Notes under the pieces: generated by a model
Seen by the model: only the letters and a program-made list of their open reading frames with translations
Databases searched by the model: none
What the model was told of the DNA's origin: nothing
Shown: positions 36,642-59,639 of the stretch, in pieces
How positions within the stretch are numbered: the first letter of the stretch is position 1
How the letters are laid out: each line of letters opens with the position of its first letter
Assembly: GCA_047639325.1 (NCBI GenBank)
Contig: JBLINN010000001.1
Coordinates: forward strand, 1 to 59,639
Direction of reading: 5' to 3'
DNA from: Paracoccaceae bacterium
GTDB lineage: Bacteria > Pseudomonadota > Alphaproteobacteria > Rhodobacterales > Rhodobacteraceae
DNA: 59,639 bases
Position numbers and translations under genes: made by a program

Positions 36642-37403
36642 TCAGTCAACCTTGGTGACCCGCGCAACAAAACTGTATCCGACCCCGTGGATTGTGTTGA
36701 TGACCTCAGGATCCGAAGCGGCGTGGCTCAGCTTTTTGCGCAGGCGCATGACATGGACGTCAATTGTGCGATCACCGGCAAAACTTGCCCGACCGCGCGC
36801 CGCGTCAAGCAGTTGATCGCGGGTGTAGACGGTGTTGGGATGCGCGGTGAAAAGCTGCAAAAGCTCAAACTCGCTGGTGGTCAGGGCCACATGGTCACCG
36901 GTATCGGCCGCGCTCAGCGACCGCTCGGCGGTGTTGAGGATCCAGTTGCCAAACTGAAAGCTGGGCGGGCGCGATTGTTCGGGCCTGGTATCCGCCGCCC
37001 GCGTGCGGCGCAGGATGGTTCGGATACGCGCCACCAACTCGCGCGGTTCAAACGGTTTCACCATGTAGTCATCGGCGCCAAATTCCAGCCCGACCACCCG
37101 GTCAAATGTCTCGTCCCGCCCCGAAAGCACCAGAATCGGCAGGTTGGATTCGGCGCGCAGATCGCGGGTGATATCAAGGCCACTTTTGCCCGGCAGGCCG
37201 ATATCAAGGATGCACAGATCAACGTTTTCGCGTGCCAGAATACCTTGCATTTCCCGCCCGTCCGACGCGCACAAGACCCGGTATTCCTGTTTTTCAAGAT
37301 AGCGCTTGAGGAACGATGTGATTTGTGGATCATCATCGACAACAAGGATCAGTTCTTTGTCCAGCGCGTTGTCCCCCAACAAATCAGAATCGCTGTTGGC
37401 CAT
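36642..37403 (-). CDS. OmpR-family response regulator
   Basis: REC (LVVDDD, ILDIGLPGKSG, KPF) plus a winged-helix C-terminus (TIDVHVMRLRKKL...GVGYSF). Confidence 0.85.
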   Translation of the reverse strand: MANSDSDLLGDNALDKELILVVDDDPQITSFLKRYLEKQEYRVLCASDGREMQGILARENVDLCILDIGLPGKSGLDITRDLRAESNLPILVLSGRDETFDRVVGLEFGADDYMVKPFEPRELVARIRTILRRTRAADTRPEQSRPPSFQFGNWILNTAERSLSAADTGDHVALTTSEFELLQLFTAHPNTVYTRDQLLDAARGRASFAGDRTIDVHVMRLRKKLSHAASDPEVINTIHGVGYSFVARVTKVD

Positions 37404-44095: not shown

Positions 44096-44101
44096 GTTCT
44101 C

Positions 44102-44971: not shown

Positions 44972-45063
44972 TACCCCAGCAGCAACAAAACCACGGCCAC
45001 GTTGACCAGGGCACCCGCCAAAACAAACGCATCAAACGTATTGATTTTACGATGTTTCAGCAT
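44956..45063 (-). CDS. Possible 35-aa single-TM peptide
   Basis: MLKHRKINTFDAFVLAGALVNVAVVLLLLGYWLFA fills the gap between the cupredoxin-like and FGE-like genes. Below the ORF-track cutoff. Speculative. Confidence 0.2.
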   Translation of the reverse strand: MLKHRKINTFDAFVLAGALVNVAVVLLLLGYWLFA

Positions 45064-45086
45064 GGGCTACCCTTTGGGTCTGTTGC

Positions 45087-45827
45087 TTAGTAGGACAGGT
45101 CCTTGGTCACGGCGCCACCGGCATCGACGGTGATTTCACCGACCTCGACCTCGCCCAGGAACCCGTGCCACATCATCACTTCGTAGGTGCCCGCCGGGAT
45201 ACCATCGATCGAGAAACCGCCAGCCTCGTCCACCACCGAATAATAGGGGTTCTTGGCGACAAACACGAAGCTGTGCATGAAATCATGGGCGTCGCATTCG
45301 ACTTTCATGCCGTTGCCCCGGCGAAGTTTCACCTTTTTGGTGACCGTATCGCCCTTGCTGGGCTGCGATACATTCATCACCGTGCGACGCGCCTTGCCGA
45401 TCAGTTCGTAGGTATGGATGTTGTGCAGGGTCATGTCTGAATTATTCGCCGTCAGCTCGCCCCCATTGGCCATCACGCCCAAAACCGTCGAAAATTCACA
45501 GCCTTCCTGATCGATGGTCAGGTTCATTTGTTCCGCGTCAAAGGCCTTGCCTTCGCCAACCTCGTTCAGGAACACCACCGCGTTCATCAGCTTGCCGTCA
45601 CCGTTGATTTCCACAAACGGCACCTCGCGCGATCCCTCGCCGCAGATTTCCGGGTCTTTTGAAATGGTATAGCTGCGGGTGTCGGCCTCGGCAGCGCCGG
45701 CGGCCACGGTTCCGGCAAAGCTGCCACCATTGCTGACATCAACTTCTTTGTATCCCTTGGCGCTGGCCGTGGTGGCCAGACCAAGCAACGCCAGTGTCAT
45801 GGCGGATTTTGCAAGCGTATACTTCAT
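45087..45827 (-). CDS. Secreted cupredoxin-like protein with a C-terminal CarboxypepD_reg-like domain
   Basis: Signal peptide MKYTLAKSAMTLALLGLATTASA. Candidate type-1 Cu ligands are HNIH ... C-DA-H-DF-M, the amicyanin-type C-X2-H-X2-M spacing. C-terminal GGFSIDGIPAGTYEV. Confidence 0.5.
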   Translation of the reverse strand: MKYTLAKSAMTLALLGLATTASAKGYKEVDVSNGGSFAGTVAAGAAEADTRSYTISKDPEICGEGSREVPFVEINGDGKLMNAVVFLNEVGEGKAFDAEQMNLTIDQEGCEFSTVLGVMANGGELTANNSDMTLHNIHTYELIGKARRTVMNVSQPSKGDTVTKKVKLRRGNGMKVECDAHDFMHSFVFVAKNPYYSVVDEAGGFSIDGIPAGTYEVMMWHGFLGEVEVGEITVDAGGAVTKDLSY

Positions 45828-45854: not shown

Positions 45855-48065
45855 TCAGGCGACCAGCAGAGTTTGATCCGGCGTCTGCTCGGGGGCCTGC
45901 GTTTGAAAGATTTCAGCCAGCGCATCGATTGCCACCAACCACTGGTTCTTGCGGGCCTCGTCGTTTAGCAGGTCCAACAGCCGCGCAGCACCGGCATGTG
46001 GGGCGTATTCCCCCAGCAGCTTACCGATGTCGCGGCGATAGATACCGTCATTGCGCGCCGCAAATTCGACCAGCGCATCAACCCCGTCGTCACCACCAAG
46101 ACGCGCCAGCGCACGGGCGGCAGCGATGCCAGCCCCAAGGTAGCTGTCGTTCAGCGCACCGGTCAGCGCATCGCTGACCACATTACGCCGATCCAAGCTT
46201 CGGATCGCTTCGACCCGCACCAGCTGATCGTGATGACCGACAAGGGCGACCAGCAATTCGTCGATGGCGTCGCCGGGAAGAAAGCCAAACAGACGCGTCG
46301 CCAGCACCCGAATTTCCGAGTTTTCACTGTCCAGCAGACCCTTTGCCGTTTCAAACAGGCTGTCCGGCAAATGACCGCGTGAGTCGCCATGTTCGGCCAG
46401 CGAAAACAGCACTGCCTGCCGGGTTTCTTCGTCGATATCACTGTTCAGGGACGCGATCAGCGCCTCGGTAACCTCGTCCTGTACCACCTGCCCCAGCAAC
46501 CGCGCCGAAAACCGCTGAACATCCAGATACGGCGCCACTTCGGTGTCCCAGGACACTTTGCGCTTGGAAAACTTGCGGGTGTTGGTCATCGCCAGCAAGC
46601 GTTCCTGATCATCGTCCAAAATGATCTCTTGCAGCGGCGCTTTGGGTTGATCAGGCTCGTTGGCCATAATCGCGCGCAACGTCGATCCCGGCGCGGCATC
46701 TGCGGCCACCAATGGCAGGCTTTCATCAATCTCGCGGGCGATTTCCTCTAGCTCAGCCTGATCCGGCTCTGCTTTGGGCACCAGTTCGATCACCGGTTCA
46801 ACCTCTTCCACTTCTGGTTCTTCCGGCGGCAGCACCAATTCGCCTTTCAGCGCGATCAGCAGGCCGACACCCGCGTCATTTGGCCAGACGGGATCGTTTG
46901 CAGCGATATTGGCAAGGGTTGTCAGGCTGGACAGGCGCATTTGCCGGTTCGGGTCTGCGGCCACTTCCAACAAGGCGGGCACAGCGGTTTCCCCGGCTTT
47001 TTCAAGGGTTTCCAGCACGCCAATGCGGAATTCATGGGGGATTTTTGCGTTGCCCAGCACATGCATAAAACCTTTGGCAACCACCGGGCCTTTTAGGGCA
47101 AACAGCGCCAGCGCTGCGTGTCTGGCGGCAGTTGGGTCGCCCTTAACGGTGTTTTTCACCGCGTCCACCTGTTCCTTTTCCCGGAAAGTCTCGGGGTGGG
47201 CGGCGATGATTTTGAACACTTCGACGCGCACTTTGGGGTCCGCATCGGCAATCAGGTCGCGCAGAACCGGCAAGTGGGCCACCCCGTGATGGTGCACAGC
47301 AGCGGCGCGCACGACGGCGTCGGGGTCTTGAAACATCTCGACCAAACGCGCATCGTCAGACGCCAGGTTTTCCAGCGCAAGGGCGCGGATCGCGGCGGAT
47401 TTATCGGCCAGCATGTCGCCCAGCAGCGCGCTGAGATGCGGGTTATCCGACTGCCCCACGGCCCGGGCAACGCGCCGGACAAGGCGAGGATCGCCGCTTT
47501 CGTAAAAGACGCCCAGCGCCTGCGCCCCATCGTGGCCCATTTTGGCCAAAGCGCAAAACGCCGGTTCGCTAACATCCTGGCCCAATTCGTCGGCCATCGC
47601 GGTCAGAATTTCGGAAACCGCCTCTTCAACCTGAAAGTCGCCCAAAGCCTTGATCGAGGTCATCTGGATATCGTCCCAGGCGTCCCAACCATCGGTATAA
47701 AAGGCCTCTTCGTCCCAGGCGAATTGATCTTCTGAACGTGACACGGCCAAGGCGCGCAACAGCGGCACAACCGGTTGGTGGCGCATCGCCACAAGGGCCT
47801 TGATGGCCGCTTTCTTGACATCAGATTCCGGGTCGCCAACCAAGTTTTCCATCAGCTTGTCGGCTGTCTCTGGGTCCTGAATATCGGCCAGCGCCATCGC
47901 GGCATCGGTGCGCACATCCGGATCTTCATCCAGCAGCGCGGCGACCAGATCGCTGGTTGCTTTTGGCCCGCCGATGACCCCCAAAGCCCGGGCAGCCGCA
48001 CAGCGATGAACGTCTACCTCGCCCTTCAGGATTTCGCTAAGTCTTTCTGCTGATTTGATTTTCAT
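45855..48065 (-). CDS. Large HEAT-repeat (PBS-lyase-type) protein
   Basis: Repeated ...RxAAxALGxIGxxxAvxxLxxaLxDxDpxVRxxAaxAL... units throughout, with an acidic central linker. Start is ATG 48065 or GTG 48074. Confidence 0.8.
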   Translation of the reverse strand: MKIKSAERLSEILKGEVDVHRCAAARALGVIGGPKATSDLVAALLDEDPDVRTDAAMALADIQDPETADKLMENLVGDPESDVKKAAIKALVAMRHQPVVPLLRALAVSRSEDQFAWDEEAFYTDGWDAWDDIQMTSIKALGDFQVEEAVSEILTAMADELGQDVSEPAFCALAKMGHDGAQALGVFYESGDPRLVRRVARAVGQSDNPHLSALLGDMLADKSAAIRALALENLASDDARLVEMFQDPDAVVRAAAVHHHGVAHLPVLRDLIADADPKVRVEVFKIIAAHPETFREKEQVDAVKNTVKGDPTAARHAALALFALKGPVVAKGFMHVLGNAKIPHEFRIGVLETLEKAGETAVPALLEVAADPNRQMRLSSLTTLANIAANDPVWPNDAGVGLLIALKGELVLPPEEPEVEEVEPVIELVPKAEPDQAELEEIAREIDESLPLVAADAAPGSTLRAIMANEPDQPKAPLQEIILDDDQERLLAMTNTRKFSKRKVSWDTEVAPYLDVQRFSARLLGQVVQDEVTEALIASLNSDIDEETRQAVLFSLAEHGDSRGHLPDSLFETAKGLLDSENSEIRVLATRLFGFLPGDAIDELLVALVGHHDQLVRVEAIRSLDRRNVVSDALTGALNDSYLGAGIAAARALARLGGDDGVDALVEFAARNDGIYRRDIGKLLGEYAPHAGAARLLDLLNDEARKNQWLVAIDALAEIFQTQAPEQTPDQTLLVA

Positions 48066-48118
48066 CTGACTCACTCATGGTTTGATGCGCTAAACTATCA
48101 ACCCCGTCAGGCACGGCG

Positions 48119-48132
48119 TTGACCCAAGTCAA
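48119..48132 (-). promoter_or_regulatory. FNR/CRP-family (FnrL/Dnr-type) box upstream of the HEAT-repeat gene
   Basis: TTGACCCAAGTCAA is a perfect TTGAC-N4-GTCAA palindrome, centred about 60 nt upstream of ATG 48065. Confidence 0.55.
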
Positions 48133-48137
48133 GGGCA

Positions 48138-48173
48138 GATCACCGGCCAGCGGATTCGCTCTGGCCGGTGATC
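48138..48173 (-). terminator. 13-bp perfect inverted repeat after the Mo-subunit gene
   Basis: GATCACCGGCCAG-N10-CTGGCCGGTGATC lies between stop 48219 and the FNR-type box. Weak T-tract, so it may be an attenuator or processing site. Confidence 0.4.
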
Positions 48174-48218
48174 ATTTCGACCGTTCCGGGGCGCCCAAAC
48201 CGGACGCCCCGGCATTTA

Positions 48219-50897
48219 TCAAATAACGATGTCGCGCGGTGCAAAGGACATCGACCGGAAGGTGTGCTTGTAAGGCGACTCACCAATCTTGGTGACCTTC
48301 GCGATACCCATCTTGAAGTTGTAGTTACCGCTGATCCAATCGACGACCCGTCCGGCCAAAGCGTTGGCAGGCTGGCTGGCATGCAAGAAGTCCATATACA
48401 TGACCCCCGGCTTAACCGCCCGCGTCACCATCGCCACCGCCGTTACCGCAGCTTCGCTAAGTTCGACGTTGCCGTTGGCCATCTGACCGGCGAACGAATA
48501 ATCCGATCCTTCGACCCCCAGCGTGGTGTCCTTCAACGAAGGCACGCGGTCATTGGACAGCAGGACCATATCGCCACTTTCGATACCGCGGGCTGCGGCA
48601 TCTTCGGTGTTGATCTCAACCCAGTTATCCGGCCAGCGCTGGACAATGTAGGGCCGCCGCGTGTCGTCGAAACCAGACTGCCAGCGTTCGTTGGCACGAC
48701 CGGACGTACACCACAGTTCGTCGCCTTTTGGCTTCATCCATTCCCAATAATCCGAGAACAGATCCCAAGGCGATTTCTGGATGTTGCACTTGCCGGTCTG
48801 CGAATTGAAATGCGTCAACTTCTTGTTGTACATGTTCAACGCAGTCGGCCCGCCTGGCATCAGCTTACGTGTGGTGTCATGCAGACGAACGGTGCCTTCC
48901 AGCGTTCCATCCGGGTGCATATAGACCGGGCCCTGAATACCGTTGGTTCCCATTTCGCGGAACTTCTGGTGCAGGGTCTTGCCCTCGCGATGCGCTGCCA
49001 CTTTGACCATGTTAAAGTCTTTGCGGCTGCCTCGGGTGAACTTGGCCAGTTCCTCGGCAACATCGTTAGAGTTTTCCCAATCAAAGCCCTCAAAGCCCAT
49101 CTTTTTGGCCAGCTGGGCAATGATCCACCAATCCGGTTTCGCTTCTCCCGGTGCATCGTAGAACTTTTGATACAGCCGGATACGACGTTCGCCGTTGGCC
49201 CGCAGGAAATCCTCTTCGCCCCAGGTTGCCGCCGGAAAGATGATGTCCGCAAACTGGTTGCCGATTGGATCGACCAGATAGATATCCTGGTTGACAACCA
49301 CCATGCCGCCACTATCAACCCGTGCTTTCAGGGTCTCAAGGATCTTTTCGCGGTTGATCGACTGGATCTGATGCGGGTTGCCACGGGTCAGTTCATGGAA
49401 CCGCTGCGACAATTGCTGAGATCCCAACATCGACTGGATCCAGGTGGTGCCGATGACATGTGCCATACGGGTGTGGCCCGCCATGGTCCAGGTATCCGTG
49501 TCCAGCGCCCGACGACGACGACCCGGCAGCTTCATCGGCGATTTGTTGCGCGGATAACCCCCGCCACGTACACCGCCACGCTGGTGACCACCCGCCCGGC
49601 CAATAACCTGACCAGGACGTCCGCCTGCGCCGACAGTGATCCCAAGTGCGGAAATCGCCTGGGTATTGCCGGTGTTGTTGGACCAATAGAAGCCTTTTTC
49701 GATCATGATCGAAGTTTTTGGCCGACTGCCATCATCTTTTGGCTTGGCCATCATCTCGGCTGCCAGCTGAATTTTCGCAGCATCCACGCCCGAAACTTCG
49801 GCCGCGGCTTCCAGCTTGAATTCATCCTGTGCCAGCAACCACTTGGACCAGTCTTCAAACCCTTTGGTCTGGAATTTGCCCCAGGTTGTCCGCCACTGCC
49901 AAGGGGTGTTCCGTGTGCCCTGACCAAAGCCCGAGGAAGACCCCCACTGGTCATTAACCCACTTTTCGATCCACTCTTTGTCCTGCCAGCCGTTCTCGAC
50001 GATGATCCGCGCAATGGCGTTGACCACCAACAGGTCTGTGCCGGGTGTCACGTCCAGCCACAGCCCGCCGTTCTGTTCGGCGTAAGCCACACCAGCGGTC
50101 TTGCGAGGCACCATAAAGATGGCCTTTTGACCATTCTGGATGCCCTTCATGATCCACTGCGTGAACAGGATCGTCTTGGTCTCGTAAGGGTCCGTGCCGC
50201 AGATCAACAGGGTTTCGGCGTTCATCCAGTCTTCGTAGGCCGGGCCGAAATTGTCGAACCCTGCATCCCGGAAACCGGGTGTCGAAGACACGTCAGACGG
50301 GGTGTCGTGGAAGGTGAAGTTTGCCGTGTTGATTGACCGCAAGGCGTATTTGGTGATCGCGTAGGTGTTCTCCATATACTGATAAGAGAACGTCTTGACG
50401 CCATAGGCATTGTGACCGTGCTTTTTGATCACGTATTTGCCGATTTCGGCGGCAATATCCAACGCAAAGTCCCATGGAACCGGTTGCAGGATGCCATAGA
50501 TACGCATCATCGGCGACTTCAGACGGTCCCGTGTCGGGGTTTCCGGATTATAGCACTTCTGCGCGATACAGCCGCCACGAAGCGAGCTGTCGCCGTCGGT
50601 ATTCACAAACTCGGTGTCTTTGTCGGGGATGATCACGACGTGGTGCGGCTCGCCTTCGTGCAGCACCACGTTGTGCTGGTTTGGGGCAACCCATGGGCCC
50701 AAAGGCGCCACCGGGAAATCTTCGCCAAATGCGTTTTCTTCGGCCTTCTGGCCACCGCGCTTGTCGCCTTTGACCGGCCAGCGATAGACTTTGTAACCAC
50801 AGGCAACGATGCAATAATCGCAGGCGGTGGTGATCACCTCGGCATCTGCCGGTGGCAGGGGCCCGTGTTGATCGGGGATGTAATACGGAGTTGACAT
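48219..50897 (-). CDS. Molybdopterin oxidoreductase large subunit, arsenite-oxidase/iodate-reductase (AioA/IdrA) family
   Basis: N-terminal 3Fe-4S motif TACDYCIVACGYKVYRW (C-X2-C-X3-C). Collinear with AioA as I recall it (PDK...SSLRGG, GGHQRG, NGERRIRLYQKF.D.PG, FDWEN). No own signal peptide. GGAGAGG Shine-Dalgarno. Confidence 0.88.
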   Translation of the reverse strand: MSTPYYIPDQHGPLPPADAEVITTACDYCIVACGYKVYRWPVKGDKRGGQKAEENAFGEDFPVAPLGPWVAPNQHNVVLHEGEPHHVVIIPDKDTEFVNTDGDSSLRGGCIAQKCYNPETPTRDRLKSPMMRIYGILQPVPWDFALDIAAEIGKYVIKKHGHNAYGVKTFSYQYMENTYAITKYALRSINTANFTFHDTPSDVSSTPGFRDAGFDNFGPAYEDWMNAETLLICGTDPYETKTILFTQWIMKGIQNGQKAIFMVPRKTAGVAYAEQNGGLWLDVTPGTDLLVVNAIARIIVENGWQDKEWIEKWVNDQWGSSSGFGQGTRNTPWQWRTTWGKFQTKGFEDWSKWLLAQDEFKLEAAAEVSGVDAAKIQLAAEMMAKPKDDGSRPKTSIMIEKGFYWSNNTGNTQAISALGITVGAGGRPGQVIGRAGGHQRGGVRGGGYPRNKSPMKLPGRRRRALDTDTWTMAGHTRMAHVIGTTWIQSMLGSQQLSQRFHELTRGNPHQIQSINREKILETLKARVDSGGMVVVNQDIYLVDPIGNQFADIIFPAATWGEEDFLRANGERRIRLYQKFYDAPGEAKPDWWIIAQLAKKMGFEGFDWENSNDVAEELAKFTRGSRKDFNMVKVAAHREGKTLHQKFREMGTNGIQGPVYMHPDGTLEGTVRLHDTTRKLMPGGPTALNMYNKKLTHFNSQTGKCNIQKSPWDLFSDYWEWMKPKGDELWCTSGRANERWQSGFDDTRRPYIVQRWPDNWVEINTEDAAARGIESGDMVLLSNDRVPSLKDTTLGVEGSDYSFAGQMANGNVELSEAAVTAVAMVTRAVKPGVMYMDFLHASQPANALAGRVVDWISGNYNFKMGIAKVTKIGESPYKHTFRSMSFAPRDIVI

Positions 50898-50909
50898 GTT
50901 TTTCCTCTC

Positions 50910-51491
50910 CTAACCTTGAAGGTTGTCGTGACGGCCGTAGATCAGCCCGAAAATTCCGGTGGCGTAGATATCGTCACCATCCAGTTCCAGCAGGATCTGC
51001 GGCAGGCTTTGATAGGCTTGCCCTGAAATCAGGATTCCGTGCCGTGTCAGGTCATATGTCGACAGGTGCAACGGGCAGGCGCCCAGGGATTTCGTGTCGG
51101 CCTTGTAGCTGTCAAACAACGTGCCACCCTGGTGGGTGCAGGCGTAATTGAACGCGACCACGTCCTGTTCCGGGCCGATGCCGCCACCGGCGCGAACGCC
51201 CATTTTGACGATCATGTTGTCGCTGTATTCGCCTTCGTCCGGGTAGTTGAAGTCAAACGGAACATCCGTTTTCAGATCGGACAGTTTGCCAATCAGCTTG
51301 CGCGGATATTCGGTGATTTGCGCCGGCACTTGCTTGGCCTGCGCCGTGCCCGGATCAAGGGTGATCATGATGGTCGTGGTGACCCCTGCCCCGATCAGGA
51401 ATTTACGGCGGGATACCAGGCACTTGTGCCCAACGGCCTTGGCGGCTTCCTTGCGGGTCATCCCCGTTTCGGCTTTTACATCTTGTGACAT
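50910..51491 (-). CDS. TAT-exported Rieske [2Fe-2S] small subunit (AioB/IdrB-like)
   Basis: Twin-arginine SRRKFLIGAG. Rieske boxes C-T-H-QGG and C-P-L-H. Start at ATG 51491 after AAGGA. Confidence 0.85.
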   Translation of the reverse strand: MSQDVKAETGMTRKEAAKAVGHKCLVSRRKFLIGAGVTTTIMITLDPGTAQAKQVPAQITEYPRKLIGKLSDLKTDVPFDFNYPDEGEYSDNMIVKMGVRAGGGIGPEQDVVAFNYACTHQGGTLFDSYKADTKSLGACPLHLSTYDLTRHGILISGQAYQSLPQILLELDGDDIYATGIFGLIYGRHDNLQG

Positions 51492-51511
51492 ATTTTTTCC
51501 TTTTCCAATGC

Positions 51512-52654
51512 TCACTCGGAAGCCATGGCTTCGTAGGGTGGCAAGACAGGCGGTTCGACTTCCAGTTCGTCACCCGAAAAGGCTTCGAGGAAGGCAACCA
51601 GTTGGCCCACTTCGTCGTCGTCCAAACCAAGCGGTTTGATCAGGTCGGATTTGGTTGATGACATGGTGCCGTCGGTAAAGTCGTTTTCACCGCCACCGGC
51701 GTTATAGAACTGAACCACTTCTTCGAGATCCCAGAACGCGCCATTGTGCATATACGGTGCCGTGTAGGCGGTATAGCGCAGGGGCGGGGTGCGGAATTTC
51801 CCCATGTGGTCCTTTTCCTTGGTGCGGAAATAAAGGCCCGGATCATCCTTCAGAACCCGGTACATTTCCTGGGTCACGCCCTTGGCAAAGATTTCATAGC
51901 GAAAGGTCACCTGCGCCAGTCCATCTTCTTCCCAACGCTCTGCGGGTGGCACGCCGATATTATAGTAATTCTCGTCCGTGGCCTGCGCGCCGTTGTGGCA
52001 CTGAATACAGCCCGCCTTGCCGTTAAACAGCTCCATCCCGGCGATCTGTTCTTCGGTCAGCGCGCTGGTCTCGCCGCCCAGATATTTATCAACCGGGGTG
52101 TCGTTGACGATCAGCGTGCGTTCAAACGCGGCAATCGCCGCCCATGCGTCGCCGATCAGCGGCCATTCGGTGCCGAACACATCGTTAAAGCGCGCCACGT
52201 ATTCCGGGATGAACGCCATCCGGGTTTCCATCACGTCGTTCTCGCCGTTCCCGGCAACCGCACCCTTGGCAGCAGACGGCGCCTGCTTTTCAAGCGAGGC
52301 AGCGGACCCGGCCCAAAACAACTGGCCCAGATAGGCCGAGTTGATCACCGACTGGCTGTTGCGCCAGTGAACGGTGCCCGGATAGCCGCGTGACAGGCTG
52401 TCGCCAAACCCCCAGCCCTGATCGGGCTCGTGGCAGGTGACACAGGCGGTCGATGCGTCGCCACCGATGCGCGGATCCCAGAACAGGATTTTGCCCAGTT
52501 CAACCTTGGCATCCGTCATCTTGTTATCCAGCGGAATGGGCGGATCGCCCAACGGGGCCAGGGCTGGATATTCCTGCGCCTGAGCCATCGCTGCCGAGGC
52601 GGCGATTGCCGCAACACCGGCCAGCAGAGTAAGTTTGTTTGTCATTGGTTTCAT
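51512..52654 (-). CDS. Di-haem cytochrome c peroxidase (CCP/MauG family), copy 2
   Basis: Signal peptide. CVTCH and CIQCH. FRTPPLRYTAYTAPYMHNG. Confidence 0.9.
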   Translation of the reverse strand: MKPMTNKLTLLAGVAAIAASAAMAQAQEYPALAPLGDPPIPLDNKMTDAKVELGKILFWDPRIGGDASTACVTCHEPDQGWGFGDSLSRGYPGTVHWRNSQSVINSAYLGQLFWAGSAASLEKQAPSAAKGAVAGNGENDVMETRMAFIPEYVARFNDVFGTEWPLIGDAWAAIAAFERTLIVNDTPVDKYLGGETSALTEEQIAGMELFNGKAGCIQCHNGAQATDENYYNIGVPPAERWEEDGLAQVTFRYEIFAKGVTQEMYRVLKDDPGLYFRTKEKDHMGKFRTPPLRYTAYTAPYMHNGAFWDLEEVVQFYNAGGGENDFTDGTMSSTKSDLIKPLGLDDDEVGQLVAFLEAFSGDELEVEPPVLPPYEAMASE

Positions 52655-52669
52655 CTTTCCTCTCCCGTC

Positions 52670-53791
52670 CTAGTTCTGAACTTCGCGCCAGTTTTCGATG
52701 GTCGGATAGTTGGTTGAAATAGGATCGGGCCAGACGTGCTCAGGACCGGTCAACGGATCACCAGACAGCGCCTCAAGGAAGGCAACAATGTCTTTCTGTT
52801 CAACAAATGTCAGGCCAAGCGGCTTGATGCGTTCGTCTTTGTTAGCGTCATCGCCACCACCGGCGTTGTAAAAGGCCACAACCTCGAACAGCGAACCAAA
52901 CATGCCGTTGTGCATGTAGGGCGCGGTGTAAGACAGCTCGCGCAGGGTGGGCGTATTGAACGACCCAATGTCGGACCCATCTGCCGGATGGCGGATAATC
53001 TGCGCACCCACGTCGCGGCGGATGTTCATGTAATTCTCGATGCCCATGAACTGCGCAAAGGCCGCAAAAGTCATGTGGCGCATCGGGTCGGACCAGATGT
53101 CGGGGTTCTCTGGCGTGCCGATGTTATAGGCCTGATCGTCAGTCAGACGCCGGCCATTGTGGCACGAGATACACCCGGCTTTGCCTTCAAAAAGCTCCTG
53201 ACCGCGCTGTGCGCCGTCAGACATGGTGCCTACGTCAAAGGGCGCACCGCGCGATGTCAGCGTTGCCAGATATTCCGGGATCGCCTTGCGGATTGACCCG
53301 TTCGACGGCTCGCCATATCCGGCCTCTTCGAACATCTTCACATAAATAGGGTCTTGCTTGACGCGTTCTTGCATCAGGCGCATGTCCATGTTCATCAGGT
53401 AATCTTCGGTGATCATTTCGCGGGTCACGTCGTTCAGGTTCGTGCCCAGACGCCCGTCGTGCATCCAGTTGGCGGCCAGCGCGGTGTTGATCAGGGTTGG
53501 CGTGTTGCGGAACCCTTTGGAACCCGGGTAGGCCAGCGACAGCGCCAAACCATCGGAATAGCCGTTTTCCGGCTGGTGGCAGCTGGCGCAGGATATCGCC
53601 GCGTCGCCCGAAAGCCGCTGGTCAAAGAACAGGCGCTGTCCCAGCGCGGCCTTGGCCTGGTTGATTTCCGGTGCCACGATCGGCCCCAGCGGTACTGTGT
53701 CCGCAAAGACGGTTCCGGCCAGCAAGGTTGCCCCCATCAGCGAGGCCCCCAATGTCAGCGCAAATCCGCGTTTGGATCGAGATATCGTCAT
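52670..53791 (-). CDS. Di-haem cytochrome c peroxidase (CCP/MauG family), copy 1
   Basis: Signal peptide MTISRSKRGFALTLGASLMGATLLAGTVFA. CASCH and CISCH. FNTPTLRELSYTAPYMHNG. Start trimmed to ATG 53791 after AAGGGAA. Confidence 0.9.
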   Translation of the reverse strand: MTISRSKRGFALTLGASLMGATLLAGTVFADTVPLGPIVAPEINQAKAALGQRLFFDQRLSGDAAISCASCHQPENGYSDGLALSLAYPGSKGFRNTPTLINTALAANWMHDGRLGTNLNDVTREMITEDYLMNMDMRLMQERVKQDPIYVKMFEEAGYGEPSNGSIRKAIPEYLATLTSRGAPFDVGTMSDGAQRGQELFEGKAGCISCHNGRRLTDDQAYNIGTPENPDIWSDPMRHMTFAAFAQFMGIENYMNIRRDVGAQIIRHPADGSDIGSFNTPTLRELSYTAPYMHNGMFGSLFEVVAFYNAGGGDDANKDERIKPLGLTFVEQKDIVAFLEALSGDPLTGPEHVWPDPISTNYPTIENWREVQN

Positions 53792-53887
53792 TGATTTCCC
53801 TTTCTTGTTAAAAATGTCTCCGGCTCGGAAATCGCGAAACGGATTGGTGTCCTGCGGGCAAAGTCGCAACCCCACCCCCCAAATTCA

Positions 53888-53901
53888 TTGACGGGCGTCA
53901 A
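53888..53901 (-). promoter_or_regulatory. FNR/CRP-family box upstream of the peroxidase-Rieske-Mo unit
   Basis: TTGACGGGCGTCAA is a perfect TTGAC-N4-GTCAA palindrome, about 103 nt upstream of ATG 53791. Confidence 0.55.
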
Positions 53902-53956
53902 GATTCCGCGATTTAACAAATTTTTACATCTGCGCCGGGGTCGGGCGGGCAGGATG

Positions 53957-56233
53957 TCAGGCGGTGAACCGTCTGCGGGCACGCCAGCCGATCAGCAGAA
54001 AAACCAAACCCGCCAGCAATCCCGCCACAACCGCTGTTGCGATGGTTTTTGTCGGGTTCTCCACCGGCTCCAGCAGGATCCAGTACCAGGCGGTAAAGCT
54101 TTGGCGCAGGCCGATCTCGCCATTCAGCCCATCCCAATTGGCGAAAGCGATGGGGGTATAGACCCCTTCGTCAAATTGCAGATCCTGCGGCGTGCCAGTG
54201 TCCAGCGCGCGGGTAAACACCACCTGCCAGCGGCCATCTTTCCAAGTGCCTGTGGCCCTTAAATCTGAGCTGTCGGCGCGCGGCGTAGGCGCCTTTTCCT
54301 GCCCCTTGGCATCACTGATCACCACGGTTGCGGGCAGTTCCGGATCCTGCGAGGGCGCCGTCCAGTGCCAGATATTCACCGAGTTCTTGCGATCACCCTG
54401 GCGGAAATAGGGTTTCTCGGCCGTGCCAGTCAGCGCCGCCGGTATCTGCACCGCAATCGCGTCGCGTGTGGCGGTGACATCGTCCAGCGCATATTGCTGT
54501 TCCAGCGCGGATCCCGGCACCGAATAGGTGCGGTCATCCACATCAACGCGCAGCGCGATATCATCGGCATTATACAGCGCCCGCACCGTCACCATCTCGT
54601 TCAGGGAAAAGAACAACCGCGGTTCCTTGATAACGTTGGGCGACAGGCGGAAGGTCATCGCCGGGGCACCATCCCAGGCAGGATCATCGCCATCGCTGGG
54701 CAGATCGCCATCGACACGCACCGCGCGGATCACGCTGTCGCCCTTGCTAAGCGGCGTCGCATTATTGCGCAGGGTCATCACGTAATTCGCCACCGCCCAG
54801 CGGTCTTCCAGGCTCATATTGGTTGAATGTTCCGGCATCGGCGTGCTGGGAATCCCCGCTGACAGGCGCTGAAACACGTCCTTAGCGTCCACCGACCAGC
54901 GCCAAGTTTCAGGCTGGGTCAGGTTGCGCGGCCAGATGCGGTTTTCCCAATCATCCGCCAGCCGCTTGCCCGACATGATGTTGCCGCGCCCTGCATTGCC
55001 GTGGCATTCGCGGCAGGCCTTTTCGAATTGCACCCGACCATTGGCCAGCGCCGCATCGGTCACTTCGGGCGGGGTGCCCAATTCAATCGCCGTCAGGCCC
55101 AGATCTTCGGCGGTTTCTTCCTCCCAATATCCGAAGGTTTTGATCTTATAGATCAGCGCATCAATTTCAGCGTCACTCAGGATGGTTTTCCAGCCTGGCA
55201 TCGCGGTGCCCGGCAGCCCTTCGCGGATGGTTTCGCGCAGGTCGGCATCAGTGGGGAATTCGCTGTCGGAATCGGTGGTCTTGTATTTGAACAAACCCAG
55301 GGTGAAATCACGCGGCGCCGGATACATCCGCTCTGCCGCAATCCCCAGCCCGTCGCCGTCATCGCCGTGGCATTGCGAACAGCGCTTTGTATAGATCGCA
55401 TCAACCGCGCCTTCGTCCAGCGCAGCGCCTTCGGCAGCGGTGTCAGAACCCTCTTCCGCCCCGCCGGTGCTTTCCTCCAGCTCCCACGATCGCGGCTCAA
55501 ACCCGGTATAGTCATATAGGAACGAGATGATTTTCCACACCTCATGCTCTTGCAGCATATCCTCCCACACCGGCATCGCCGACGCCCAAGGCGTACCTTC
55601 CACCGGCAGGCCCGGGCCGCCTTTGGTAATACGCCAGAACAGGAACGCCTCTTGCAGCTGGGCGATGGTGCCCACGTCTTGAAAGTTGATCGGGCGCGGG
55701 GTGAACGCCCCGGCGAAATGCCCGGCCCCGTCCAGCAGGTCGCCGTGGCAGTAAACGCAGTTCTCGTAATACAGCCCCGCCCCCTCGGCGACGATCTCGC
55801 GGTATTCGTCCGAGGCTTCGTCAAATTCCGCGCGGAACGGGTTTTCCAGCGTCAAAAGGTTAAAGGTCTTGCCATAGGCCTTCAGACTGGAGGGCGGCGC
55901 TGGGTGGACGGTGCGCAATTCAGCAGGCGACACAATCGACGGCTTGACGATATCATAGGTCAGCGCGCCCACGCCGGCGACCGTGGCCACAAGGGCAACC
56001 GCGCGCAAGACCTTGCGCTGGGGCGAGCCGAACAGCGACACCAGCGGTGCAAAGAACCGCCCAGCAGTGGCATTGTCAAAGGTTACCACCAGCAAAACGC
56101 CGACGGTGCAGATGATCATGTACTGGATCAGCAAGGACGCGGGCAAAGGCGGGTTCAGGATGTGGGCGAACACCGCGTAAAGACCACCAAGAACCACCAG
56201 GGCCAGCGTCAGGGGATGTTTCAGGAATGCCAT
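53957..56233 (-). CDS. Membrane-anchored trihaem cytochrome c fused to an EB_dh/DOMON-like haem-binding domain
   Basis: About three N-terminal TM helices. CVYCH, CSQCH, CRECH. The C-terminal part (DDPAWDGAPAMTF...GTWKDGRWQVVFTRALDTG...PIAFANWDG...) resembles ethylbenzene-dehydrogenase gamma-type domains. Final TM anchor. Confidence 0.75.
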   Translation of the reverse strand: MAFLKHPLTLALVVLGGLYAVFAHILNPPLPASLLIQYMIICTVGVLLVVTFDNATAGRFFAPLVSLFGSPQRKVLRAVALVATVAGVGALTYDIVKPSIVSPAELRTVHPAPPSSLKAYGKTFNLLTLENPFRAEFDEASDEYREIVAEGAGLYYENCVYCHGDLLDGAGHFAGAFTPRPINFQDVGTIAQLQEAFLFWRITKGGPGLPVEGTPWASAMPVWEDMLQEHEVWKIISFLYDYTGFEPRSWELEESTGGAEEGSDTAAEGAALDEGAVDAIYTKRCSQCHGDDGDGLGIAAERMYPAPRDFTLGLFKYKTTDSDSEFPTDADLRETIREGLPGTAMPGWKTILSDAEIDALIYKIKTFGYWEEETAEDLGLTAIELGTPPEVTDAALANGRVQFEKACRECHGNAGRGNIMSGKRLADDWENRIWPRNLTQPETWRWSVDAKDVFQRLSAGIPSTPMPEHSTNMSLEDRWAVANYVMTLRNNATPLSKGDSVIRAVRVDGDLPSDGDDPAWDGAPAMTFRLSPNVIKEPRLFFSLNEMVTVRALYNADDIALRVDVDDRTYSVPGSALEQQYALDDVTATRDAIAVQIPAALTGTAEKPYFRQGDRKNSVNIWHWTAPSQDPELPATVVISDAKGQEKAPTPRADSSDLRATGTWKDGRWQVVFTRALDTGTPQDLQFDEGVYTPIAFANWDGLNGEIGLRQSFTAWYWILLEPVENPTKTIATAVVAGLLAGLVFLLIGWRARRRFTA

Positions 56234-56242
56234 AATCGTCCC

Positions 56243-57379
56243 CTATTCCGGCAGGTTCATCAGATAGTCGAGCAGCAGGGTCATTTCGCCCTCGGTCATG
56301 TCATCACCAAAATAGTCGGGCATCAGGTCGGCCTCGTAACCGTCGGCGATCTCGGCATTCGGGTCGATGATCGACGCCTTCAACGCCTCGCGGTTCATGC
56401 GCGCGCCAATACCGTTCAGCTTTGGCCCCATGTCGGCCTCGCTGCCTTGCAGATCATGGCACCCGGCACAGCCGTATTCGTCGATTACCCCGGCGGCGTC
56501 GGTGATCGGACCGCTGTCTTCAGGTTCTTTGCTGGGGTCCGGTTCCGGCAGGGTCAGCAAGTGATCAACGATCAGCAGCAATTCACTGGCGTGCATGTCC
56601 CCACCAAAGCTGTCGGGCATCAGGCCTTCGTCATAGCCGGCCGCGATCTCGGCATTTGGGTCCAGAATCGCCCCCATCAATTCACTGCGGCTCATCCGGT
56701 TGGCAATGCCCCCCAAAGCCGGGCCAAGATCGGCGCCGCTGTCGTTCAGATCGTGACAGGCAGCACAGGAAAACTTGTCCAGTGCGGCGATCACGTCGGT
56801 TTCCGGGGCCTCGATCATGCCATCACCGATGGCCGGGGCCGTATCCACCGGCGTGTCTTCGGCCGAGGGCAGCGGCACGGTTGGCCCCATCCCGGCGCGG
56901 TCCTGCAAAAAGGCGATGACAGCGTTGATTTCAACGGCGCTCAGTTCAATTGGCGCCGCATCCACCACCGGCATCGGGCTTACGCTGTCATTGGTGCCCT
57001 TTTTGCCAAACCCGGCGACCACATAGGCTGATGGGGCCTGCATCGACTCGCGCAGATAACCCTCGACCGCTTTTGGCCCTTCGCCCCCCGCCGCAACGCC
57101 GGAATACCCCGCATCGGCCAGCCGTTCGGGGAAGGTCGCGGCCAGGTCCATTTCCAGCGTATCAGGTGCGCGGCCCATACCATTGTGACACAGCGTACAA
57201 GTCCCCTTGCCGGAAAACAGCCCCTCGCCCAGGGTGATCATGCCCGCCATGTCCAGCCCTTCGGTCGAGACTTCGATAGGTTCGGACAGGTCCGGTTCAA
57301 CCTGTGGCAGGATATGCGCAAAAACCGCGTAGAACCCCAGCAGGACAAGGCTGAAAGTGATGACGCGCAGGAAGGTCAT
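56243..57379 (-). CDS. Membrane-anchored trihaem cytochrome c
   Basis: N-terminal TM. CTLCH, CAACH, CAGCH. Haem domains 2 and 3 are obvious internal duplicates. Confidence 0.8.
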   Translation of the reverse strand: MTFLRVITFSLVLLGFYAVFAHILPQVEPDLSEPIEVSTEGLDMAGMITLGEGLFSGKGTCTLCHNGMGRAPDTLEMDLAATFPERLADAGYSGVAAGGEGPKAVEGYLRESMQAPSAYVVAGFGKKGTNDSVSPMPVVDAAPIELSAVEINAVIAFLQDRAGMGPTVPLPSAEDTPVDTAPAIGDGMIEAPETDVIAALDKFSCAACHDLNDSGADLGPALGGIANRMSRSELMGAILDPNAEIAAGYDEGLMPDSFGGDMHASELLLIVDHLLTLPEPDPSKEPEDSGPITDAAGVIDEYGCAGCHDLQGSEADMGPKLNGIGARMNREALKASIIDPNAEIADGYEADLMPDYFGDDMTEGEMTLLLDYLMNLPE

Positions 57380-59130
57380 GATGACAGCTCCGCACCTTCT
57401 TGCTTGGTCTGGCCGAGGCGCGACAGCCAGAACACAAACACCATCACCGCCATAAAGGCCAAGGTGATACCGGTGATCGTATTGCCCGCATCCCCCAGCG
57501 TGGGGATGTAATTCTCGGGCGAATTATCCTTCATCACCGTGTAGACATGCCAGTTGGTGCGCAGGGACGACCGGATATAACCCATCAGCCCCATCAGCCA
57601 GGTAAACGCCACCGGCAGCACAAACAGCGCATATTGCGACCGCTCGGTCATACGGCCCCAATGCACCTTTTCCGACGTGGCCCCGCGCAGCATGAACACG
57701 TCAATAATCACCGACCCGATGATGATGCTTAGCGTGGTGATCACCTGCGGCACCGAGGCGCCGACTTTGTAAACCGTGGGTGTGATATAGCCGTAAATCC
57801 CGGCGCCCACGATATTGGCGATGCCCACGACATACAGCGCCACAACCACCATATTGGCGGATTTGGCCCACGACACCACGGGGATACGGGACGACCGGTA
57901 GAACATCTGGAACGACAGGAAGGTGAACACCAGCATCAGGTTCACAGCGGTATTCTTGGCCGGCATAATCCCCAACGGCCCAAGGATTTTATGATGCGTG
58001 CCGCCCAGGTTCTGGATCTCGGCGGTGGTCAGGATCAGCGTATGCGGCGTGACCCACACCAGAAACCCGGCAACAATCACCACAGCGATATATTTGACGT
58101 ATTTGGCATATTGCGCCCCGCGATCCGTGCGCATCAGGCCGGACCACAGATAGTAATTCGCGGCCAGCATAATCGTCCCGATCAGCACCGCCTGAATGAT
58201 GAACAACCACGCCAGAATGCCCCCCATGGCGGTGATGCCCATCTGCTGGCTATAGGCGTAAATCTCGGCCATCAGCCAGTATCCGGCAAAGGGCAACGGC
58301 AGGAACCCCAGAATGGCGATAAAGTTGGACGTATAACCCATCCAATCGTAATGCGCCTTTTTCGCAGGGTCCTTTTCCGCCAGGAACATATAGGCGGCAT
58401 AGCCCCCCACAATGGCCCCGCCATAGGCGATATTGGCCAAGAACCGGTGCAGATTCAGCGGGTTCCACAGCGGGTTGCGCGTCGCCTCCCACACGGTGCC
58501 GGTGATCGCCCCGTCGGGGGCAATCCCCGAGGGCGACATCATGAAGCTGGTCCAGGCATTGGCCACAAACATCAACGTCAGGCCAACGGTATTAAGCACA
58601 AGGCCAATTGACATGTGGTAATATTTGCGATTGCCCCGCCGCAGCGCGTCCCACGAATAAAAGTAGATATACAGCGTGACGCTTTCCAGCCCGAACAGCG
58701 CCGCATAGATCAGCATCTGACCACGGAACACCTTGATCAGATAGCCCATCAGATGCGGGTAAAACACCAGCAGCGTCAGCAACAGTCCCCCGCCCACAAG
58801 CGCGGTTAGCGAATAGGCGGCCATGGTGATCTTCATGAACTCCCGCGCCATCGTGTCAAACCGGTCATCGCCGGTCACCACGCTGATGAATTCGGTGGAT
58901 ATGGCGAACAGCGGCACCGCCAGCACAAAGGCCGCCAGAAACAGATGCATCTGCGCCATCGACCAGGCCAGGGTGCGGGCCGAGATGCCAGCAATCACCG
59001 GATAATCCATCCGCGACGGCTTGGGCGCGCCTTCCAGCGCGACGGCAGCGTCAGACGACGCGGCGGCCAGATCGGGCAGAACAAGGCTGGCGAATGCGGC
59101 GGTGATGGCGATCAGATGCGCGGTTTTCAT
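57376..59130 (-). CDS. Cytochrome bd-like protein (CydA superfamily, no Q-loop, no CydB partner)
   Basis: CydA-like blocks: AQMHLFLAAF (His19-like), LFGLESVTLY (Glu-like), FVANAWTSFMMSPSG (compare ANGWMQNP), LHRFLANIAYGGAIVGGYAAYMFLAEKD (His186 region). About 14 hydrophobic helices. ATGA overlap with the next gene. Confidence 0.7.
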   Translation of the reverse strand: MKTAHLIAITAAFASLVLPDLAAASSDAAVALEGAPKPSRMDYPVIAGISARTLAWSMAQMHLFLAAFVLAVPLFAISTEFISVVTGDDRFDTMAREFMKITMAAYSLTALVGGGLLLTLLVFYPHLMGYLIKVFRGQMLIYAALFGLESVTLYIYFYSWDALRRGNRKYYHMSIGLVLNTVGLTLMFVANAWTSFMMSPSGIAPDGAITGTVWEATRNPLWNPLNLHRFLANIAYGGAIVGGYAAYMFLAEKDPAKKAHYDWMGYTSNFIAILGFLPLPFAGYWLMAEIYAYSQQMGITAMGGILAWLFIIQAVLIGTIMLAANYYLWSGLMRTDRGAQYAKYVKYIAVVIVAGFLVWVTPHTLILTTAEIQNLGGTHHKILGPLGIMPAKNTAVNLMLVFTFLSFQMFYRSSRIPVVSWAKSANMVVVALYVVGIANIVGAGIYGYITPTVYKVGASVPQVITTLSIIIGSVIIDVFMLRGATSEKVHWGRMTERSQYALFVLPVAFTWLMGLMGYIRSSLRTNWHVYTVMKDNSPENYIPTLGDAGNTITGITLAFMAVMVFVFWLSRLGQTKQEGAELSS

Positions 59131-59139
59131 GTCACGCCC

Positions 59140-59268
59140 CTATTGCGGCATCAGATCAGCGCCGACAGGCAGACCCTGCGCTTGCATGATCGACTTATCC
59201 ATTAAGTAGAAAAACGCCGCCCAAACGACCAACGCCCCCACAAAAACCACCAAACTGCGTCCTGTCAT
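59140..59268 (-). CDS. Possible 42-aa single-TM peptide
   Basis: MTGRSLVVFVGALVVWAAFFYLMDKSIMQAQGLPVGADLMPQ. Its stop is 9 nt before the bd-like ATG. Below the ORF-track cutoff. Confidence 0.3.
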   Translation of the reverse strand: MTGRSLVVFVGALVVWAAFFYLMDKSIMQAQGLPVGADLMPQ

Positions 59269-59288
59269 CCTGCCGTCCCAGCCAATTT

Positions 59289-59411
59289 CTAGTGAACCGA
59301 GATCACGCCGTGATCAAAGATCAGCAACCACCAGAAGAAATAAATCATCGCGACCGCAGTCGCGGCGAAGACCAGCTTGCCAAGGGTTGTGCTTTGTTTG
59401 CCATCTGCCAT
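59289..59411 (-). CDS. Possible 40-aa single-TM peptide, first gene of the island
   Basis: MADGKQSTTLGKLVFAATAVAMIYFFWWLLIFDHGVISVH, preceded by GAGGCAGGG. Below the ORF-track cutoff. Confidence 0.3.
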   Translation of the reverse strand: MADGKQSTTLGKLVFAATAVAMIYFFWWLLIFDHGVISVH

Positions 59412-59474
59412 TTCAGCCCTGCCTCGACATGCCGTTTCAGATCTGGAAACGATCACGTTCTGCAATTCATGTAA

Positions 59475-59488
59475 TTGACGGACGTCAA
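59475..59488 (-). promoter_or_regulatory. FNR/CRP-family box at the head of the island
   Basis: TTGACGGACGTCAA is a perfect TTGAC-N4-GTCAA palindrome, centred about 70 nt upstream of ATG 59411. Confidence 0.55.
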
Positions 59489-59531
59489 GTTTTTCGCCTG
59501 TGCCCCTTCCTGTGCCCCTTACGGTGGCGCG

Positions 59532-59639
59532 CTAAAACGCCACGCCACAGGCCTGAGAAATCTGCTGGCGAAGCCGGGCCATATAGGCATCCAATGCCTC
59601 GTCTTCTTGCTGGGGCACCAGAAAGATCAGCTTGGCGGC
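59532..59639 (-). CDS. 3' end of an unidentified CDS entering from the right edge
   Basis: Open minus-strand frame ...AAKLIFLVPQQEDEALDAYMARLRQQISQACGVAF ending at TAG 59532-59534. Not in the ORF track. Confidence 0.3.
   Translation of the reverse strand, partial: AAKLIFLVPQQEDEALDAYMARLRQQISQACGVAF

Follow-up and report, generated by a model that had tools for sequence, protein, structure and literature searches.

Background

The reductive conversion of iodate into iodide influences the speciation of marine iodine and, via iodide, sea-surface ozone deposition. Iodate-reductase (idr) loci are told apart from those of arsenite oxidase (aio) by the conserved idrABP1P2 synteny with its two peroxidase genes, which aio loci are without, and Vibrio, Sedimenticola and Roseovarius have been named as carriers of idr islands (PMC8692401). 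In Roseovarius azorensis the idr genes are upregulated 5.7-12-fold in static, oxygen-limited growth and 43-61-fold when iodate is present too (PMC11445184), and idrA transcripts are high only inside oxygen minimum zones (OMZs; PMC13455634). The idr literature that we searched makes no mention of an Fnr-type site or regulator for these genes. A worked example of such sites comes from Dinoroseobacter shibae, where transcription starts have been mapped 39.5-41.5 bp downstream of Fnr/Dnr boxes with the sequence TTAAC-N4-GTCAA and where mutagenesis of the outer dinucleotides of the nirS box confirmed its function (PMC5398030). Here we analyze a 59,639-nucleotide stretch of DNA from a Paracoccaceae bacterium (assembly GCA_047639325.1, contig JBLINN010000001.1, positions 1 to 59,639; hereafter the window), in which three perfect TTGAC-N4-GTCAA palindromes, boxes 1 to 3, stand in front of three gene units of an extended idr island. 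These sites are non-random, conserved in position among related loci, and co-occur with regulators of the Crp/Fnr family. We consider it very probable that they are Crp/Fnr-family activator sites of the class II arrangement, each driving one unit of the island: a cytochrome module (unit 1), the idr genes themselves (unit 2), and an operon headed by a gene for a HEAT-repeat protein (unit 3).

Results and discussion

Three perfect palindromes in the intergenic gaps of the island

A pattern scan of the window recovers exactly three matches to TTGACNNNNGTCAA (Table 1), the same three that had been picked out in a preliminary description of this DNA, and none beyond the gaps of the island. In dinucleotide-preserving shuffles (n = 100) the expectation for TTGAC-N4-GTCAA is 0.03 per window, and not one of the 100 reached three. 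The looser FNR/CRP-family consensus TTGA-N6-TCAA is matched five times against 1.06 expected; neither of the two extra matches (27305 and 48805) falls in an intergenic gap of the island. When one mismatch to TTGAY-N4-RTCAA is tolerated the count rises to 13, comprising the three perfect boxes and ten scattered ones, with 5.7 expected by chance, and the ten were treated as background.

All sizeable open reading frames (ORFs) from about 39.7 kb to the end of the window lie on the minus strand, and the boxes occupy gaps of 120, 165 and 153 nt between them. These are the island's only real non-coding gaps above 100 nt, as had been proposed earlier, the other gap of that size (115 nt, between the gene for a 246-aa protein and the FGE-like gene) being occupied by an ORF for a 35-aa hydrophobic or membrane peptide. 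A contrast between ORF-free and ORF-covered DNA was not relied on, since spurious ORFs cover nearly all of this GC-rich DNA. Gene starts were taken to be those called independently on two short contigs with identical proteins (12 kb and 3.7 kb, from one ice-metagenome run, retrieved by an exact-protein look-up). By these starts the box edge is 63 nt from the ATG of a 40-aa peptide (59411) for box 1, 96 nt from that of idrP1 (53791) for box 2, and 53 nt from that of the HEAT-protein gene (48065) for box 3, so that the 60-105 nt given in the preliminary description is approximately right, the third distance falling short of it.

Next to box 1 there is also a tandem direct repeat, two copies of GGGGCACAGG with a 12-nt period at 59497-59518, which is 9-30 nt upstream of the box and between it and the stop of the preceding gene for a protein of about 118 aa. 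It occurs once in the window and is not kept in the locus L002 or other relatives; it could be a response-regulator site or a product of chance.

Conservation of the boxes in related idr loci

The comparison drew on 80 related idr loci (numbered with the prefix L; 1.52 Mb), in which the island genes were marked by tblastn and TTGAY-N4-RTCAA was sought. All three boxes recur in L002, the IdrA of which is 94% identical to that of the window, and likewise in L003 and L025; L015 has boxes 1 and 2 and then its contig ends, L009 has boxes 2 and 3, and L004 has box 3. The positions are kept as well: in L002, L003, L015 and L025 the center of box 1 precedes the ATG of the peptide by 71-76 nt, box 2 is identical in sequence in L002, and box 3 separates idrA from the HEAT gene in L002, L003, L004, L009 and L025. 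In box-anchored alignments, such as that of the junction 1 sequences TTGACGTCCGTCAA, TTGATGCCCGTCAA, TTGATGGCCATCAA, TTGATGCACATCAA and TTGATCTTGGTCAA, the half-sites are retained, but variation is seen in the N4 core, at the Y/R positions and in most of the flanking DNA, and this survival of the half-sites amidst diverging surroundings is the signature of a protein-binding footprint. The C and G at positions 5 and 10 are not conserved, the close relatives L003 and L015 using TTGAT-N4-ATCAA. Thus, the motif TTGAC-N4-GTCAA, as first formulated, is exact for the window, and its fifth and tenth positions do not extend to the relatives.

Of the 51 perfect boxes in the 80 loci, 35 either mark an idr junction or precede a regulator gene linked to the island. 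Upstream of idrP1, 71 regions totaling 28 kb contain 22 boxes, more than 100-fold above the 0.16 obtained from composition-matched simulations (300 runs, maximum 2). Ruegeria-type loci (L037, L038, L048 and L049) have TTAAY-N4-ATCAA at the equivalent place, and a TTAA half-site variant is present in experimentally validated D. shibae sites (PMC5398030). Many other Alphaproteobacteria have the bd-like module after the HEAT gene and a box at the idrP1 promoter at most. The three-unit partition is therefore limited to the lineage with the gene order of the window; within it, the earlier proposal that the boxes divide the island into co-regulated units is well supported as an interpretation.

Box 2 precedes an iodate-reductase-type operon

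We read unit 2 as idrP1-idrP2-idrB-idrA, a cluster of the iodate-reductase type, because two peroxidase genes adjoin the genes for the molybdopterin and Rieske subunits and because the synteny is shared by the 80 relatives; synteny and identity make membership of the IdrA clade likely, and the activity is predicted. The idrA product has an N-terminal 3Fe-4S motif, C-X2-C-X3-C, at residues 26-33, and Azoarcus IdrA and IdrB have been described with the same cofactor motifs (PMC10149662). It is 76% identical to a Roseovarius homologue and 65-66% identical to those of Vibrio and Sedimenticola loci. The 80 nearest relatives (55-94% identity) include Roseovarius, Ruegeria, Vibrio and Sedimenticola, and both peroxidase homologues are found in all of them wherever the contig reaches upstream of idrB.

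The nearest solved structures to the idrA product are of AioA (301 bits), a distant similarity, and the product scores 429 bits against the NCBIfam model for the arsenite-oxidase large subunit, the cut-off of which is 359. Automated annotation would probably mislabel idrA as an arsenite oxidase on this score. We rejected the aioAB reading in view of the two peroxidase genes immediately upstream in the operon, unlike the situation in aio loci. The idrP1P2BA synteny hence supports the view, advanced in the preliminary description, that the molybdenum enzyme is a reductase and not an aerobic arsenite oxidase.

Promoter geometry and transcripts

Downstream of each box, at a distance of 21-22 nt, is a T-rich hexamer that might serve as a -10 element (Table 1). 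The one after box 2 is part of a block, TGCGAYTTT, that is kept in L002, L003 and L015, and at box 3 the relatives have CTAATC, TACGGT or TTCAAT after a gap of 20-21 nt. Placement of the boxes at -41.5 predicts 5' untranslated regions of 29, 62 and 19 nt for boxes 1, 2 and 3, respectively, and the spacing of the boxes to these hexamers and to the start codons would fit a class II arrangement.

Transcript data could be brought to bear on this geometry in the locus L063, from an OMZ-type relative with an IdrA identity of 81%. It carries a perfect box (1108-1121), and its idr operon is present in marine metatranscriptomes, in one of which the whole cluster is expressed in situ. The best run lacks RNA from position 1 to 1166, and a contig of depth 36 begins at 1167, 52.5 nt downstream of the box center. 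RNA upstream of the box is absent from all eight runs, seven of which are too thin to define a 5' end. L024 and L017, which were tried for replication of this boundary, are absent from the OMZ metatranscriptomes used. The window and L002 themselves appear to stem from metagenomes of ice and marine sediment. We regard the L063 boundary as supportive of an activator-dependent promoter and not as decisive. The same locus lacks box 3, and its depth, about 35-50 over idrP1P2BA, falls to 15.6 at the HEAT gene and to about 5 at the bd-like gene, with one contig (6700-8984) spanning the idrA-HEAT junction. Its HEAT gene is expressed by attenuated read-through.

This drop has a possible structural counterpart in the window, where two stem-loops follow the idrA stop. 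The 121 nt after the stop have a minimum free energy of -63.6 kcal/mol (z = -5.3), and the 13-bp inverted repeat (48138-48150/48161-48173) is exact, as had been described, and 5 nt from box 3 instead of the 6 nt given before. Two hairpins are found at the post-idrA position in six of six syntenic loci with unrelated sequences, and in L009, L025 and L004 T-runs like those of intrinsic terminators come after them. Hence, the stem-loops are probably a terminator or an attenuator. The corresponding earlier suggestion, that a hairpin here ends or attenuates the transcript of the molybdenum enzyme, draws support from the T-runs of the relatives and is weakened by the lack of a U-tract in the window itself.

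Candidate regulators

In nine of the loci, a gene for a Crp/Fnr-family protein with an HTH_Crp_2 domain adjoins idr, and in all nine its recognition helix reads PET(L/V)SR, conforming to E-x-x-S-R. A helix of this form is how FNR-type proteins read TTGA half-sites. In L025 and L009 the regulator gene comes right after the last island gene, and its start is preceded, at about 55-67 nt, by a perfect box, which suggests autoregulation. In the remaining seven, from Roseibium, Pelagibius and Denitrobaculum, the gene is divergent from idrP1, and some of them have one or two boxes in the DNA that separates it from idrP1. L050 and L064, both with boxes, belong to the culturable Pelagibius litoralis DSM 21314 and Denitrobaculum tricleocarpae. 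The nine proteins score 64-89 bits against the FixK, FnrL and Fnr models, the cut-offs of which are 228-300, and a Cys-rich N-terminus is confined to the Roseibium group; together, these features indicate a distinct and heterogeneous subgroup of regulators. As tblastn and a profile search detected no Crp/Fnr-family gene in the window, the regulator acting on it would be encoded elsewhere.

A model for the switching of the island, and its rivals

From these observations we infer how the sites are bound, how they activate, that their geometry is class II and what the signal is, as follows. A dimeric activator of the FNR/Anr/Dnr/FixK type would bind the TTGA half-sites through its E-x-x-S-R helix, and each box, centered about 41.5 bp upstream of the start, would stand in for the -35 element and drive one minus-strand transcription unit of the extended idr island. 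The two stem-loops would bring unit 2 to an end or attenuate it, and transcription would be restarted by box 3, 5 nt further on, thereby restoring full and co-regulated expression of unit 3 in the lineage of the window. The active regulator, most probably under oxygen limitation, would thus switch on the three units together, with a linked OmpR-type two-component system probably adding a second input, possibly iodate. The published physiology fits low-oxygen activation of idr. That the boxes belong to the FNR/CRP-family consensus, as the preliminary description held, is borne out by motif identity, over-representation, conservation at the junctions, linked regulators, geometry and the one transcript boundary.

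Several observations count against this model and have to be set beside it. A perfect box is absent from 54 of the 71 idrP1-upstream regions, which means that not every idr locus is under FNR-type control, and a search of the 59.6-kb window and of the available flanks of its closest relatives (tblastn and a profile of the nine linked regulators) detected no Crp/Fnr-family gene. The -10-like hexamers are T-rich but weak, and generic sigma-70 scans around each box return no -35/-10 pair; the latter result is expected and uninformative if, as proposed, the box replaces the -35 at activator-dependent alphaproteobacterial promoters. No U-tract follows the hairpins in the window, and a generic terminator scan makes no call there. 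As for transcripts, none of the RNA runs sought for the window and L002 contains either, the L063 contig starts 11 nt beyond the predicted start, and the L063 boundary comes from one assembled contig of a relative that is not replicated in the lower-depth runs or in other loci.

One alternative is that the palindromes are products of chance or structural elements (relics of mobile-element ends, for instance, or RNA hairpins) to which no transcription factor binds. A short 5+5 palindrome can indeed arise randomly, but here three are observed where 0.03 are expected, the same three junctions are marked in relatives with both half-sites kept while the N4 varies, and the regions upstream of idrP1 are enriched more than 100-fold; as RNA, moreover, a 5-bp AT-rich stem with a 4-nt loop would amount to negligible structure beside the neighboring hairpins. 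Conservation and enrichment effectively refute this explanation, which we regard as extremely improbable. The more substantial division is over which protein reads the sites. The global oxygen sensor FnrL, with its [4Fe-4S] cluster, may bind them and so draw the island into the general low-oxygen regulon, a reading we find quite plausible while stopping short of calling it probable. It would account for the canonical TTGAT-N4-ATCAA at the same junctions in L003 and L015 and for the documented induction of idr by oxygen limitation (PMC11445184), and it sits well with a window that has no dedicated regulator and must receive one from elsewhere. Set against this, other lineages do have a dedicated Crp-family regulator linked to idr, and the sequence of the box does not separate Fnr from Dnr (PMC5398030), which leaves room for NO-type or cascade control.

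The boxes might accordingly be read by a Dnr/NnrR-type (nitric oxide/heme) protein or by a Crp-family regulator that is dedicated to idr and has its gene elsewhere in the genome, with nitric oxide (NO), reactive iodine or oxygen species, or the output of a cascade as the signal in place of O2; we entertain this possibility tentatively. The nine loci with Crp-family regulators of their own, all far below the cut-offs of the established models and most without an FNR-like N-terminal Cys cluster, speak in its favor. So does the resemblance of TTGAC...GTCAA in the window to Dnr-controlled sites of D. shibae, in which a di-heme cytochrome c peroxidase is activated by DnrD (PMC5398030), as well as the delay of idr expression by nitrate in two betaproteobacterial iodate reducers, pointing to cross-talk with nitrogen oxides (PMC13455634). 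On the other hand, no such regulator is found in the window or its nearest relatives, the C and G at positions 5 and 10 are not kept among close relatives, and the linked regulators of the Roseibium type are Cys-rich at the N-terminus, so that some of them may sense O2 after all. A wider version of the same idea envisages, for marine Alphaproteobacteria, a previously undescribed iodate-respiration regulon of idrP1P2BA, a bd-like/multiheme quinol-oxidizing module and a HEAT/radical-SAM/FGE-like maturation module, its FNR-type boxes being read by the idr-linked Crp subgroup in response to a signal other than O2 (e.g. reactive iodine, H2O2 or NO) and the OmpR-type system acting as the iodate sensor. 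We offer it as a speculation that is rather unlikely to hold as a whole.

Table 1. Boxes, candidate promoter and RNA elements, and predicted genes of the extended idr island, with idr-linked regulators of related loci
Feature	Coordinates	Strand	Description	Basis
Box 1	59475..59488		TTGACGGACGTCAA; minus strand TTGACGTCCGTCAA; candidate Crp/Fnr-family activator site, unit 1	pattern scan, conservation
Box 2	53888..53901		TTGACGGGCGTCAA; candidate activator site, idrP1-idrP2-idrB-idrA operon	pattern scan, conservation
Box 3	48119..48132		TTGACCCAAGTCAA; candidate activator site, HEAT-protein operon (unit 3)	pattern scan, conservation
-10-like hexamer TCGTTT	59447..59452	-	22 nt downstream of box 1	inferred from sequence
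-10-like hexamer GACTTT	53860..53865	-	22 nt downstream of box 2, in block TGCGAYTTT	inferred
-10-like hexamer TAGTTT	48092..48097	-	21 nt downstream of box 3	inferred
Two stem-loops after idrA stop	48138..48212	-	48186-48212, 11-bp stem; 48138-48173, 13-bp stem	
3' end of gene for ~118-aa secreted/membrane protein	59532..59639	-	runs off window	tblastn homologues
40-aa membrane peptide	59289..59411	-	first gene of unit 1	conserved in syntenic relatives
42-aa membrane peptide	59140..59268	-	unit 1	conserved in syntenic relatives
Cytochrome bd subunit I-like membrane protein	57376..59130	-	584 aa	PF01654, E = 2.9e-14
c-type cytochrome	56243..57379	-	378 aa, three CXXCH	motifs
758-aa protein	53957..56233	-	three CXXCH, EbdC-like heme b domain, C-terminal transmembrane helix	PF13442, PF09459, TIGR03477
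idrP1	52670..53791	-	di-heme cytochrome c peroxidase, 373 aa, signal peptide, two CXXCH	PF03150
idrP2	51512..52654	-	di-heme cytochrome c peroxidase, 380 aa, signal peptide, two CXXCH	PF03150
idrB	50910..51491	-	AioB-like Rieske subunit, Tat signal SRRKFL, exact CXHX18CX2H	TIGR02694, 118 bits
idrA	48219..50897	-	AioA-like molybdopterin catalytic subunit, 892 aa	PF18465, PF00384, PF01568; synteny
HEAT-repeat protein	45855..48065	-	736 aa, first gene of unit 3	PF13646
Remaining unit 3	39766..45827	-	246-aa protein, 35-aa transmembrane peptide (44956-45063), FGE-sulfatase-like, Usp/PCP_red, radical SAM/SPASM/PCP_red, amine-oxidase-type flavoprotein	
Hybrid sensor kinase	37561..39756	+	transmembrane-periplasmic-transmembrane, PAS, HisKA, HATPase, REC; convergent with unit 3	Pfam
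OmpR/PhoB-family response regulator	36642..37403	-	divergent from kinase	PF00072, PF00486
idr-linked Crp-family regulators	L025 20298-21023; L009 16195-16911	-	240 aa	Crp-type helix-turn-helix PF13545, E = 1.9e-13
idr-linked Crp-family regulators	L029, L030, L046, L050, L052, L064, L074, ~6100-6900	-	divergent from idrP1	

The wider island and its flanks

The island is larger than the preliminary description made it, reaching past the end of the window on one side and taking in a two-component system (36642-39756) on the other. The gene for the protein of about 118 aa, which runs off the window upstream of box 1, implies that the island continues beyond it; homologues of this signal-peptide protein were detected by tblastn in L025 (1308-1664), L002, L003, L015 and L035, and in L035 there is a box upstream of this gene instead of after it.

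Unit 1 is probably a module carrying electrons from quinol to the periplasm and may be a dedicated feed to IdrAB. The same module (53957-59411) is linked to idr in alphaproteobacterial, gammaproteobacterial (L066) and zetaproteobacterial (L073) loci. In unit 3, the HEAT gene follows idrA in nearly all alphaproteobacterial loci, and the remaining genes are syntenic in L002, L006, L025, L031 and L035; the role of the unit is possibly in the maturation of a cofactor or of heme.

The two-component system is made up of a hybrid kinase and an OmpR-type response regulator; a plus-strand ORF of 287 aa at 36621-37484 was discarded as a shadow frame, the true gene being that of the minus-strand regulator. 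Among the 80 loci, 20 encode orthologues of the response regulator (39-63% identity) and the kinase (38-50%) immediately upstream of idrP1. They include loci of Roseovarius, Ruegeria, Pelagimonas and several Hyphomicrobiales, and a perfect box is missing there in every one of the 20. None of the idr papers searched describes the pair. We propose that it probably provides a second input for idr, with iodate as the possible stimulus, and is hence a candidate sensor.

The two-component genes are abutted by a flagellar cluster (motB, flgE, flgK, flgL-like and flgI; 30566-36455, plus strand), so that the idr island adjoins motility genes. Farther off, the window encodes a LuxI-type autoinducer synthase (21976-22680, minus strand).

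Conclusions

The sites described here are of the ordinary FNR/Anr/Dnr box class, and what is new is their iodate-reductase target. The boxes are a likely explanation, at the level of DNA, for the onset of iodate reduction at low oxygen. They provide a concrete and mutable cis-element, along with a candidate regulator family, for the oxygen dependence of idr. Two further conserved modules that appear to be co-switched with the reductase thereby become candidate partners in electron transfer and maturation, and the idr synteny corrects the mis-annotation as arsenite oxidase to which a standard model leads. For researchers of the iodine cycle this is a testable cis-element, even if it will not surprise the field of anaerobic gene regulation; were the extended regulon to prove true, the microbial reduction of iodate would have its first defined regulatory circuit.

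Comparison with known systems

Loci of AioAB encode homologous catalytic and Rieske subunits. They differ from the operon in the window, which has two cytochrome c peroxidase genes and the idr synteny shared by 80 of 80 nearest relatives, and also in their regulation: aio loci are under AioXSR/sigma-54 control, whereas the promoter logic here appears to be of the FNR type.

The idrABP1P2 islands of Pseudomonas sp. SCT, Denitromonas sp. IR-12, Azoarcus sp. DN11 and Roseovarius azorensis have the same four core genes (PMC8692401, PMC10149662, PMC11445184). They share with the window the 3Fe-4S motif in IdrA, the Rieske motif and Tat signal in IdrB and the two di-heme peroxidases, and their genes are induced where oxygen is limiting or absent. 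In contrast to them, the order in the window is P1-P2-B-A, and its island is far larger, with the bd-like and cytochrome genes, the HEAT and radical-SAM genes and the OmpR-type two-component system. The genes around idrABP1P2 have been reported as poorly conserved (PMC8692401); our comparison of the 80 loci contrasts with this in finding several conserved idr-linked modules within the Alphaproteobacteria. Azoarcus has a sigma-54-type AtoC/AtoS pair instead, the only regulator noted near idr in the papers searched.

With the class II sites of E. coli FNR and Pseudomonas Anr-Dnr (TTGAT-N4-ATCAA at -41.5) the window shares the TTGA/TCAA half-site, its spacing and the apparent placement of the box instead of a -35, and the idr-linked regulators of its relatives have the same E-x-x-S-R helix. 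It departs from them in having C/G and not T/A at positions 5 and 10, and in its alphaproteobacterial promoters with a weak -10.

The closest worked example is the denitrification cluster of D. shibae (nirS-nosR2, hemA3-dnrE and norC; PMC5398030). The window is set apart from it by its target, an iodate-reductase island instead of denitrification genes, by unidirectional sites with no divergent pair, by the lack of a regulator gene in the cluster, and by palindromes that are perfect where the D. shibae sites deviate in one half-site. Nevertheless, both are from marine Rhodobacterales and both have 14-bp boxes of the form TTGAC/TTAAC-N4-GTCAA, one for each operon of a respiratory island and in positions compatible with -39.5 to -41.5, in front of genes for periplasmic reductases, cytochromes and a di-heme peroxidase.

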